Source: Octopus vulgaris
Taxonomy: Eukaryota
NCBI GenBank assembly: GCA_951406725.2
Contig: OX597824.1
Coordinates: forward strand, 25,234,001 to 25,298,000
Length of the DNA: 64,000 bases
Direction: 5' to 3'
The notes under the pieces were generated by a model. It was not told the origin of the DNA, made no database searches, and worked only from the letters and a program-made list of their open reading frames with translations. Shown one piece after another: positions 31,901 through 34,671 of this stretch (the first letter of the stretch is position 1; the number at the start of each line of letters is the position of its first letter). Position numbers and translations under genes: made by a program.

Positions 31901-32684
31901 TATAAATGTAATTTGCTGGACTAGATGCAAACACGATACCGAAATATCGCGTGCATGGAGTTCAGCCTATTACATTTGAATATATCTTTCAAATGCCTTT
32001 ACTTTGGCGCGTTGAAACCCGAGAAAACTAGCCTGCAGCTAATAATTAGCAGCAGTTAATTTATCGGTTAGAGAACATATTTATTTATATAAAATTAATT
32101 AAGGGTAGAAATTGATATTTATCAATTAAGACCAGTGGTCTAGCATATTAAAAAAGAATCCGAAGATTAAAATATTTATATATACCAATTAAGGACTGAA
32201 CACGAAAAGTGGACAGTCAACATGCTAGATATAGACGTCAAATCGTCATTCACCACAAAAGATTATGTTCTCAGATCAAACTCAACACAAAACCATAGCA
32301 ATAAACAAGTGAAAAATATACGAAATAAAATAATTACCCATGTACTAACTTAGTTTCAGCTGTTATTTTCCGCAAGGAAAACTGCAGCCATCATCAGCAT
32401 GGTCCGTTATAAATGTAATTTGCTGGACTAGATGCAAACACGATACCGAAATATCGCGTGCATGGAGTTCAGCCTATTACATTTGAATATATCTTTCAAA
32501 TGCCTTTACTTTGGCGCGTTGAAACCCGAGAAAACTAGCCTGCAGCTAATAATTAGCAGCAGTTAATTTATCGGTTAGAGAACATATTTATTTATATAAA
32601 ATTAATTAAGGGTAGAAATTGATATTTATCAATTAAGACCAGTGGTCTAGCATATTAAAAAAGAATCCGAAGATTAAAATATTT
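19920..32684 (-). repeat. Tandem array of 25 complete 507-bp HHR-containing units plus a 90-bp partial unit (retrozyme/PLE-pLTR multimer)
   Basis: Marker AAGGGTAG at 19933, 20440 ... 32608 (25 x 507). Very few substitutions, no ORF of 60 aa or more, absent from the U1 paralogous site (~6400-6456). Confidence 0.97.
20170..20234 (-). ncRNA. Type I hammerhead ribozyme, repeated every 507 bp to 32338-32402 (25 copies)
   Basis: CCAUG-CUGAUGA-uGGCUGcaGUUUUCC uugc GGAAAAUaaCAGCU-GAA-ACUA agu UAGU-A-CAUGG. Canonical core, GUA triplet, predicted cut between 20175 and 20174. Confidence 0.9.
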
Positions 32685-33020
32685 CAAAGTAAAGGCATTT
32701 GAAAGATATATTCAAATGTAATAGGCTGAACTCCATGCACGCGATATTTCGGTATCGTGTTTTCATCTAGTCCAGCAAATTACATTTATAACGGACCATG
32801 CTGATGATGGCTGCAGTTTTCCTTGCGGAAAATAACAGCTGAAACTAAGTTAGTACATGGGTAATTATTTTATTTCGTATATTTTTCACTTGTTTATTGC
32901 TATGGTTTTGTGTTGAGTTTGATCTGAGAACATAATCTTTTGTGGTGAATGACGATTTGACGTCTATATCTAGCATGTTGACTGTCCACTTTTCGTGTTC
33001 AGTCCTTAATCGGTGTATAT
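32685..33020 (+). mobile_element. Inverted 336-bp terminal segment of the array
   Basis: Reverse complement of unit interval 20010-20345 with 3 substitutions; runs into (TA)n. Confidence 0.95.
32796..32860 (+). ncRNA. Type I hammerhead ribozyme in the inverted segment
   Basis: CCATG CTGATGA TGGCTG..CAGCT GAAACTAAGTTAGTA CATGG read directly on the plus strand. Confidence 0.9.
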
Positions 33021-34671
33021 ATATATATATATTTATATATATATATATATATATATATATATATATATATATATATATATATATACATACATATATATAT
33101 ATATATATATATATATATATATATATATATATATATATATATATATATATATATATATATAATCACATACGTTAATAGATCTATATATACATAAATATAA
33201 AAACAGACATCCACGCGCGCATACACACATAGCAGGAATGACGGTGTGGTAAGAAGCTTCCTTCCCAGCCACATGGTTCCGGGTTCAGTCCCACTGCGTG
33301 ACACCTTGGACAAGTGGCTTCTACTATAACCTCGGGGCGACCAAAGCCTTGTGACTGGATTTGGTAGACGGAAATTGAAAGAAGACCGTCGTATGTATGT
33401 ATGTATGTATGTATGTATGTATGTATATATATATATATATATATATATATATATATATATGTGTGTGTGTGTGTGTGTGTGTGTGTGTGTTTGTCCCCCA
33501 CCATCGCTTGATGCCGATACTGGTGTCTTTGCGTCCCCGTAACTTAGCAGTTCGGCATAAGAGGTCGAGAGAATAAGTTCCAGGCTACAAAGAATAAGTC
33601 CAGGGGTCGATTTGTTCGACTAAAGGCGAAAGCAGTTTCAGCATAAACTTGGCTGACACGTGTCATACCCAAATCTTCAGTGATAATGGACTGAACTGAA
33701 CTGAACTGAACCGTAACTAATCTGCACATTCTCTGAAAACCCACAGATGGTGATTCGACGATTTCCCTTCACAGCTGCACGCATATCTGCCATATTTTTC
33801 TCAGTTCTACTGGTTGTGTGTACCCCAGAACGTTCGACAATATCGACATTTGATTAGTCCTTATTGGAATCGTCTGAGCCACTCATACACTTGTGTTTGG
33901 CTCATACACTCCTATCCATACACTTTCTGCAACTTTGCGTAGGTCTCTGAGCAAGTGTCGCCATGATAACTTTCTCTATCATGGTCAATGCAACGATCAC
34001 ACGCTACACACCTTCCATCGAAGCACTGCTGTAAACAGCGGAAGTGCGCTAGAACGTTAAAACTTAGAGCACATGCATAACAGAGTTAAAGCTCAATCTT
34101 TGCTAAGCGGCCTTACTCTGCGTATTTTAGCTTCGTTACTCTGACACCTGTCCGGATACTTATTGATAAGACGTTATATATATATAATATATATATATAT
34201 ATATATATATATATATATATATATATATATATATATATATATATATATATATATATAAAGTTAATCCAAACATGAAAACAAAGAGAAAACACAACAACGC
34301 GAGGACGTGGAACAAATATAGTATTATTGGACGCTCAGGAAGGAAGGGAAGAAGGAGGGTTTTTACATTTCGAGCGGAGCTCTTCGTCAGAAACATAGGA
34401 AAAGGAAAGATCCAGAGAAGGGAAGACGGAGGAAAAAAATCGCCAACGGTACACACGCGGTCACATTTTGAAATGCTATGGTTTTTCCATTATTTTCTCC
34501 AACCCCCTATATATACATATATATATATATATATATATATATATATATATATATATATATATATATATATATATATATATATATATATATATATATATAT
34601 ATATATATATATATATATATATATATATATATATATATATATATATATATATATATATATATATATATATA

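Follow-up and report, generated by a model that had tools for sequence, protein, structure and literature searches.

Non-LTR retrozymes are described in the main texts of two reports as tandem repeats that are non-coding and low in GC and carry one type I hammerhead ribozyme in each unit; the arrays comprise anything from two to tens of units, and their origin from Penelope-like elements (PLEs) is presumed (PMC7229834; bioRxiv 10.64898/2026.07.22.740005). The way in which animal retrozymes integrate has so far been assumed rather than demonstrated. For PLEs, the available descriptions already establish a tail on one of the inverted ends, targeting of TA repeats and two starts of reverse transcription. 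According to the available text of one study, a PLE protein in purified form acts on both strands of the target, which it cuts and extends; it uses two internal start sites on its RNA and is predicted to form a dimer; initiation is also reported there at sites without homology to the target (PMC11167929). The origin of tandem and inverted PLE insertions with a one-sided tail has been called undefined (PMC8557442). Herein, we describe an octopus hammerhead repeat whose young family numbers hundreds of insertions, which are short and nearly identical and in which start sites are paired according to a sharp rule.

The hammerhead unit and its array in the window

The window, a 64,000-nt stretch of Octopus vulgaris contig OX597824.1 (positions 25,234,001 to 25,298,000), carries the array and its inverted arm, together with the flanking (TA)n target, at 19906–33161 (Table 1). 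The array has a period of 507 bp, and its adjacent units are 99.7% identical (19920–32684); 25 full units, the first beginning with unit position 1 at 20010, are preceded by a 90-nt partial unit. The unit has 33% GC, occurs in tandem and is dispersed in many copies; no open reading frame of at least 120 aa was found within the array. Elsewhere in the window, two short minus-strand frames, 35252–35617 and 60185–60760, resemble what we take to be transposase and LINE fragments; neither frame gave a Pfam match.

A hammerhead core lies on the minus strand of the unit, and its cut is predicted to fall between positions 166 and 165. All three stems are retained in 12 variants from this and related families via two-sided compensatory changes: 95.7% of the cells in the stem alignment are paired and 7/14 pairs are changed on both sides, in an alignment where related sequences inflate the shuffle control and stem III of two rows is displaced by one position. 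At gathering or E-value thresholds, no hammerhead was recognised by Rfam, whose only matches were TA-driven miRNA and chance ones, and in a plain fold the hammerhead was not the top structure. Judged by its sequence, the 507-bp unit belongs to the tandem repeats with a type I hammerhead, i.e., the non-LTR retrozymes. Another hammerhead-like motif, from a third, unrelated-looking family, was seen close to a retrozyme insertion (L043:5370–5462).

Table 1. Positions of the array, its arms and its target within the window
Feature	Position	Strand	Basis
Left part of the (TA)n target, putative primer of the long arm	19906..19917	+	empty paralog 6384–6515
Two extra bases, AT, neither plain TA run nor unit	19918..19919	.	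same in upstream copy
Tail, unit 418–507, from site B to site A, cDNA sense +	19920..20009	+	sequence
B arm, 25 full 507-bp units; hammerhead on the minus strand of each, the first at ~20168–20236	20010..32684	+	
Inverted A arm, unit 1–336, start at site A, 3 substitutions	32685..33021	-	
Type I hammerhead in the inverted arm, CUGAUGA...GAAA core, predicted cut after 32855 (unit 166/165)	32794..32862	+	
Right part of the (TA)n target, putative bottom-strand primer of the inverted arm	33016..33161	+	
Empty paralogous target, (TA)n-CATACA-(TA)n, in the 13.5-kb segmental repeat	6384..6515	+	

The initial annotation held that the array ends in an exact inversion, with no gap or overlap. In the assembly, the last forward unit does stop at 32684 with AAAATATTT, and the unit then runs inverted from 336 to 1 into (TA)n: 32685–33021 is the reverse complement of unit 336 to 1/507, and the inner joint contains neither microhomology nor spacer in the assembly sequence. 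Exactness is seen at this joint but is not evident at the outer end, where a 6-nt TA ambiguity is accompanied by two nearby substitutions. The match of the inverted arm reaches 33021, so that a 1-nt overlap is possible, and with 33016–33021 being TA common to unit and target, the outer end could be anything from this overlap to a 5-nt gap. Three substitutions separate the inverted arm from the array consensus, at 33011 and 33015 (at most 11 nt from the outer end) and near 32760. The last, unit 262 C>A, occurs in units 15 and 19 and in the inverted arm and is absent from the upstream copy described below; its sharing may stem from conversion between the two inverted stretches or be an artefact of polishing. 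At the left junction, (TA)6 is followed by the extra AT and then by TATAAAATT from 19920, so there is no clean TA fusion. The target is a (TA)n tract of variable length, which hides any target site duplication, even with the empty site at hand.

Two start sites across the family

A DNA search of the 2.8-Gb genome returned 1733 candidates, and 38 of these were retrieved and scored. Exact patterns joining (TA)n to the unit were found 686 times at site A (unit 507/1) and 354 times at site B (unit 416), and we estimate ~700 insertions of the unit genome-wide. The sample was extended by the remaining 66 pattern loci of one contig (C1), by 14 B-only loci of another (C2) and by 20 loci chosen solely on an internal junction; no sample was selected on the partner end.

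Two inward-facing arms are present at 115/139 loci, and the other 24 are one-armed. Among the first 119 loci, window included (98 two-armed, 21 one-armed), an A start is paired with a B start in 96/98 two-armed cases, each of the other two having one start elsewhere. The 20 internal-junction loci include 17 two-armed ones, all A+B (17/17), with one A start displaced to position 28. Altogether, 113/115 two-armed loci join an A start with a B start, the two sites lying 92 nt apart, and no A+A or B+B locus was called among the 115. At L050, scored as one-armed, a short A/A palindrome lies next to a B arm.

Outer ends adjoin (TA)6 in 191/196 cases, as against 8/2080 background windows, and in the set not selected on TA the figure is 58/60. 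The expectation that outer ends cluster at two named sites and in (TA)n was thus borne out. In all two-armed loci, both arms read the identical unit strand inward from the target. Under target-primed reverse transcription, this makes the hammerhead strand the likely template sense. Taken together with the private variants shared by the arms (see below), the A+B pairing makes double priming from a hammerhead-sense template well supported, in agreement with the initial proposal that both target ends were primed on such a template.

What sets the two positions is another matter. It had been suggested that UA runs in the RNA do so by pairing with the target. In the young family, the full TA run is used by most A starts but by only about two thirds of the B starts, so roughly a third of the latter skip part of the UA run. 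The TA runs at unit 52, 139 and 310 are essentially unused as starts, and in an older sister family (~73% alike) the same two start positions are used, although its B site has no UAUA run. These three observations speak against UA pairing as the determinant of the sites. Both starts are internal unit positions, 160–260 nt from the predicted ribozyme cut, with no poly(A) start, and both are followed by AATTAAG in the cDNA sense. From these sequences, the start position seems to be set by a protein–RNA complex, aided by short pairing. Inversion points, which had also been expected to cluster at TA runs, do not; clustering is limited to the outer starts.

The sister family (1743 candidates; family loci L192–L213) has its own hammerhead variant and two-armed insertions of its own. 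Fragments of it lie in the window at 146–266, 13650–13770 and 39318–39438.

Inner junctions and the template

Inner-junction statistics were drawn from 95 two-armed loci, with the window left out. The initial annotation had recognised in the window the geometry of L1 twin priming, in which a second primer stops the first cDNA on one linear RNA, so that the fragments abut. The window fits this geometry within 6 nt. B arms end at site A in 12/95 loci, more often than under a uniform distribution (p=0.0006), and 11 of the 12 have a tail-only arm; L221 is a second long-arm case with a stop at site A. As a rule for the family, however, the geometry fails. Abutting fragments are confined to those 12 loci, whereas 79/95 arm pairs overlap by >20 nt, i.e., the same stretch was copied twice, which the L1 model does not predict; in 14/95 loci both arms are at least 507 nt long. 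Furthermore, neither start corresponds to a poly(A) tail or to a ribozyme-cut monomer end, and both are fixed. Overlapping arms refute L1-type twin priming as the family mechanism; we regard it as quite improbable in that role, while it survives as one outcome of double priming. Since only 1/29 long B arms end at site A, which is the chance level, the adjacency seen in the window may be a coincidence; the stop there may reflect either a collision with the second primer or chance.

The two arms differ in how short they can be. Only 4/95 B arms are <90 nt, as against 19/95 A arms (p=0.001), so that B arms nearly always span the whole tail up to site A. In 57/95 loci, the B arm ends neither at site A nor at the end of the A arm. 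Still, the two arms have a common end point in the unit (±10) in 26/95 loci, where permutation gave a mean of 7.5 and a maximum of 17 in 5000 rounds. Among 64 direct joins, 30 show at least 2 nt of microhomology (~19% for random joins), and filler bases occur at 34 inner junctions.

The 26/95 mirror-like junctions, some of them on palindromic hexamers (L077, L079, L061), bring to mind self-priming, in which one cDNA or RNA, folded back, acts as primer and template at once, possibly with an antisense template (discussed for PLEs in the available text of PMC3846280). The arms are often identical, and in the window the A arm is nested in the B arm, which is what folding back would give. However, in 15/95 loci neither arm lies within the other, the window junction is no mirror (507 vs 336), and the fixed, TA-joined state of both outer ends is left unexplained. 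Fold-back is excluded for the non-nested loci and fits only the mirror class; as a general account we find it very improbable.

A different way to obtain overlapping or multimeric arms, and one that needs no strand displacement, is priming by two separate RNAs, one for each target strand. Such a scheme has been proposed for L1, as far as the available text of PMC2837659 goes, and a dimer could carry two RNAs of one source locus. Independent RNAs should also yield A+A and B+B loci, though, and none was called among the 115. Moreover, the sequences of the arms speak for a common source. Overlapping arms often have in common private variants that are absent from all other loci examined; of 72 overlapping pairs, 30 are identical and 19 are closer to each other than to any other locus. 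At L117 the arms carry 17 and 17 differences from the consensus and none between them, and at L069 they carry 21 and 22 with one between them. Strongly differing arms also exist (L031, L086, L099, L136), partly owing to alignment trouble. Where arms are alike, their identity could also have come about later, by conversion of one inverted repeat by the other, of which the 262 C>A variant of the window may be an example. One template is favoured by three observations: B ends accumulate at site A, arms have end points in common, and they share private variants. The sequences fit one template read twice, from two positions. Two separate RNAs are, in our opinion, unlikely.

As to the form of the template, the predicted cut site is crossed by 43/95 A arms and 41/95 B arms, so cut linear monomers cannot be the sole template. 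Arm ends at unit 150–165, the ribozyme cut, number 9/190, as against 4 and 4 in the adjoining windows, too weak a signal to be used. In multimeric insertions, the units are usually of one haplotype: 33 variants are present in all passes, 16 in some, and 135 are singletons, the last number being inflated by one badly aligned unit of L031. Single-haplotype units fit a circle, and they would be expected equally of a linear multimer if the source array were homogeneous, as the 33-unit copy described below is.

Some further patterns were seen. Arm ends pile up at unit 81–120 (59/190), away from the ribozyme cut, and this could possibly be a pause site or an RNA 5' end. Each unit of L042 has an extra TA at site A. 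A variant occurs in alternate units of L067, and private variants in adjacent units of L040 and L091, suggesting slippage, a dimer template or DNA-level duplication.

Array length, candidate enzyme and comparison with described elements

The variant of the right junction was found at two places in the genome, the second 43 kb upstream of the window copy. This upstream copy (~25210630–25227800, C11; L151–L153) has the same left and inversion junctions and 33 units instead of 25. Both lie in a ~13.5-kb tandem segmental repeat, 98–99% identical, which extends over window 1–43786 and ~25 kb upstream and in which the targets are filled, empty and filled in turn. The flanks of the two filled copies differ by several SNPs, and the inversion junction is identical.

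These data bear on the idea that a one-armed insertion had its last 336 bp inverted later, in place, as DNA, or that the joint is an assembly artefact. An inversion in place would yield the same gapless geometry, one-armed copies exist (24/139), and the junction is known from the assembly sequence. Contigs of four sequencing runs, putatively of RNA origin, did not span the junction, and the one joint in them at which the strand changes is the ordinary continuation of the unit; this weighs neither for nor against the junction or expression. On the other hand, the same architecture is found at 115 loci, this copy included, the inner junction lacks the leftover TA expected of a TA-mediated inversion, and the identical junction recurs in a second copy whose flanks carry several SNPs. 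We consider both variants of this idea extremely improbable.

The upstream copy also bears on how the array reached its length. All 33 upstream units match the consensus, bar one indel. Four variants of the window array are each common to non-adjacent units and present in none of the upstream 33, and three of the four are absent from the other two-armed loci compared. The longest arm at other loci is 3.6 kb. Two copies of one insertion with 25 and 33 units imply that the array was resized as DNA after a retrotransposed seed. The earlier preference for retrotransposition over DNA slippage is thus upheld for the seed, which would be at least one unit plus the tail, but not for the length of the array, most of which was probably made by DNA-level exchange. 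The difference in unit number may alternatively come from miscounted units or from two alleles placed in tandem by the assembly. Holding 58/913 exact internal junctions of the genome, the two arrays could be source loci. The window locus would then be a case of a retrotransposed seed turning into a satellite of 13–17 kb.

Keeping in mind all of the above, we think it quite probable that the insertions arise by double target-primed reverse transcription from two fixed, non-equivalent sites, carried out by a Penelope-like enzyme. In such a scenario, a non-autonomous hammerhead repeat would be moved by an RT/GIY-YIG enzyme of PLE type that cuts both strands of a (TA)n tract. Site B would serve as the start for one target 3' end and site A, which lies 92 nt further upstream on RNA of hammerhead sense, for the other, within one ribonucleoprotein with two non-equivalent priming positions. 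The two cDNAs would be of independent length and, with strand displacement, might overlap or traverse several units; they would then be joined end to end, and the joint would often show a few filler bases or microhomology of 1–4 nt. The window copy would be an event whose B cDNA halted at site A, the locus having been duplicated and its unit number altered at the DNA level later on.

It is tempting to go one step further and suppose that a PLE RT dimer sits on one circular retrozyme RNA, its subunits at A and B priming both ends of the cut TA tract and spooling out cDNA with strand displacement. This remains tentative, and we would not put it at an even chance. If true, PLE tails, inverted pLTRs and the tandem arrays of retrozymes would all go back to a single reaction of this kind, with the insertions as its genomic record. 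In a search for the partner enzyme, no link to the unit was found at 30 GIY-YIG loci (of 6136 candidates), nor beside 20 further loci.

The window itself contains a PLE, seated in (TA)n at 47288–52305, which has no detectable DNA in common with the unit. It encodes an RT, a cysteine linker (50901) and a GIY-YIG-type motif (51000–51070), with a frame change near 49827–49854, and is bounded by direct pLTRs (47288–47746 and 51857–52311) that are 99% identical. A minimal hammerhead-like motif lies near 52160–52207, and 94 candidates were counted in the genome. By the linker, it appears Neptune-like (label after PMC8557442).

The octopus unit resembles animal non-LTR retrozymes in being non-coding, low in GC and tandem, with one type I hammerhead each, and it differs in length, 507 bp as against the published 150–450 bp (PMC7229834; bioRxiv 10.64898/2026.07.22.740005). 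Circles were demonstrated for the published retrozymes. The word "inverted" is absent from the main text of PMC7229834 and appears in that of bioRxiv 10.64898/2026.07.22.740005 only within a reference title; paired fixed starts with inverted arms are therefore not described in the main texts of these reports. Nor did the open-access literature searched yield the near-absolute pairing of A with B, overlapping arms copied from one template or arms multimeric on two sides. The A+B rule speaks against both two free RNAs and general self-priming, and direct predictions follow from it for the PLE system already established in vitro.

Three features typical of PLEs are found in the unit family: an inverted truncated arm, a one-sided tail and a microsatellite target. 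In the available texts on PLEs (PMC3846280, PMC8557442, PMC11167929), the counterparts are an inverted 5'-truncated copy, a one-ended tail and a hammerhead in the repeat, as well as (TA)n targets (Naiad; suggested for Neptune). Two internal RT starts that bound the tail, and extension of both target strands in vitro, are also described there (PMC11167929). Unlike these PLEs, the unit has no ORF, its tail is ~85–92 nt rather than 30–40, and multimers are possible in both of its arms. The PLE tail is termed "optional", whereas in the octopus unit the pairing of one end with a tail and one without is near absolute. In vitro, the two strands extended by the PLE protein show no difference in start site, whereas the unit uses A on one arm and B on the other (PMC3846280, PMC8557442, PMC11167929).

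With L1 twin priming, as presented in the available text of PMC2837659, the unit shares inward-facing cDNAs from both target strands and an inner junction with little or no microhomology. The L1 starts lie at the poly(A) tail and at a variable internal site, without overlap of the fragments (PMC2837659), whereas both sites of the unit are internal and fixed, and 79/95 of its arm pairs overlap.
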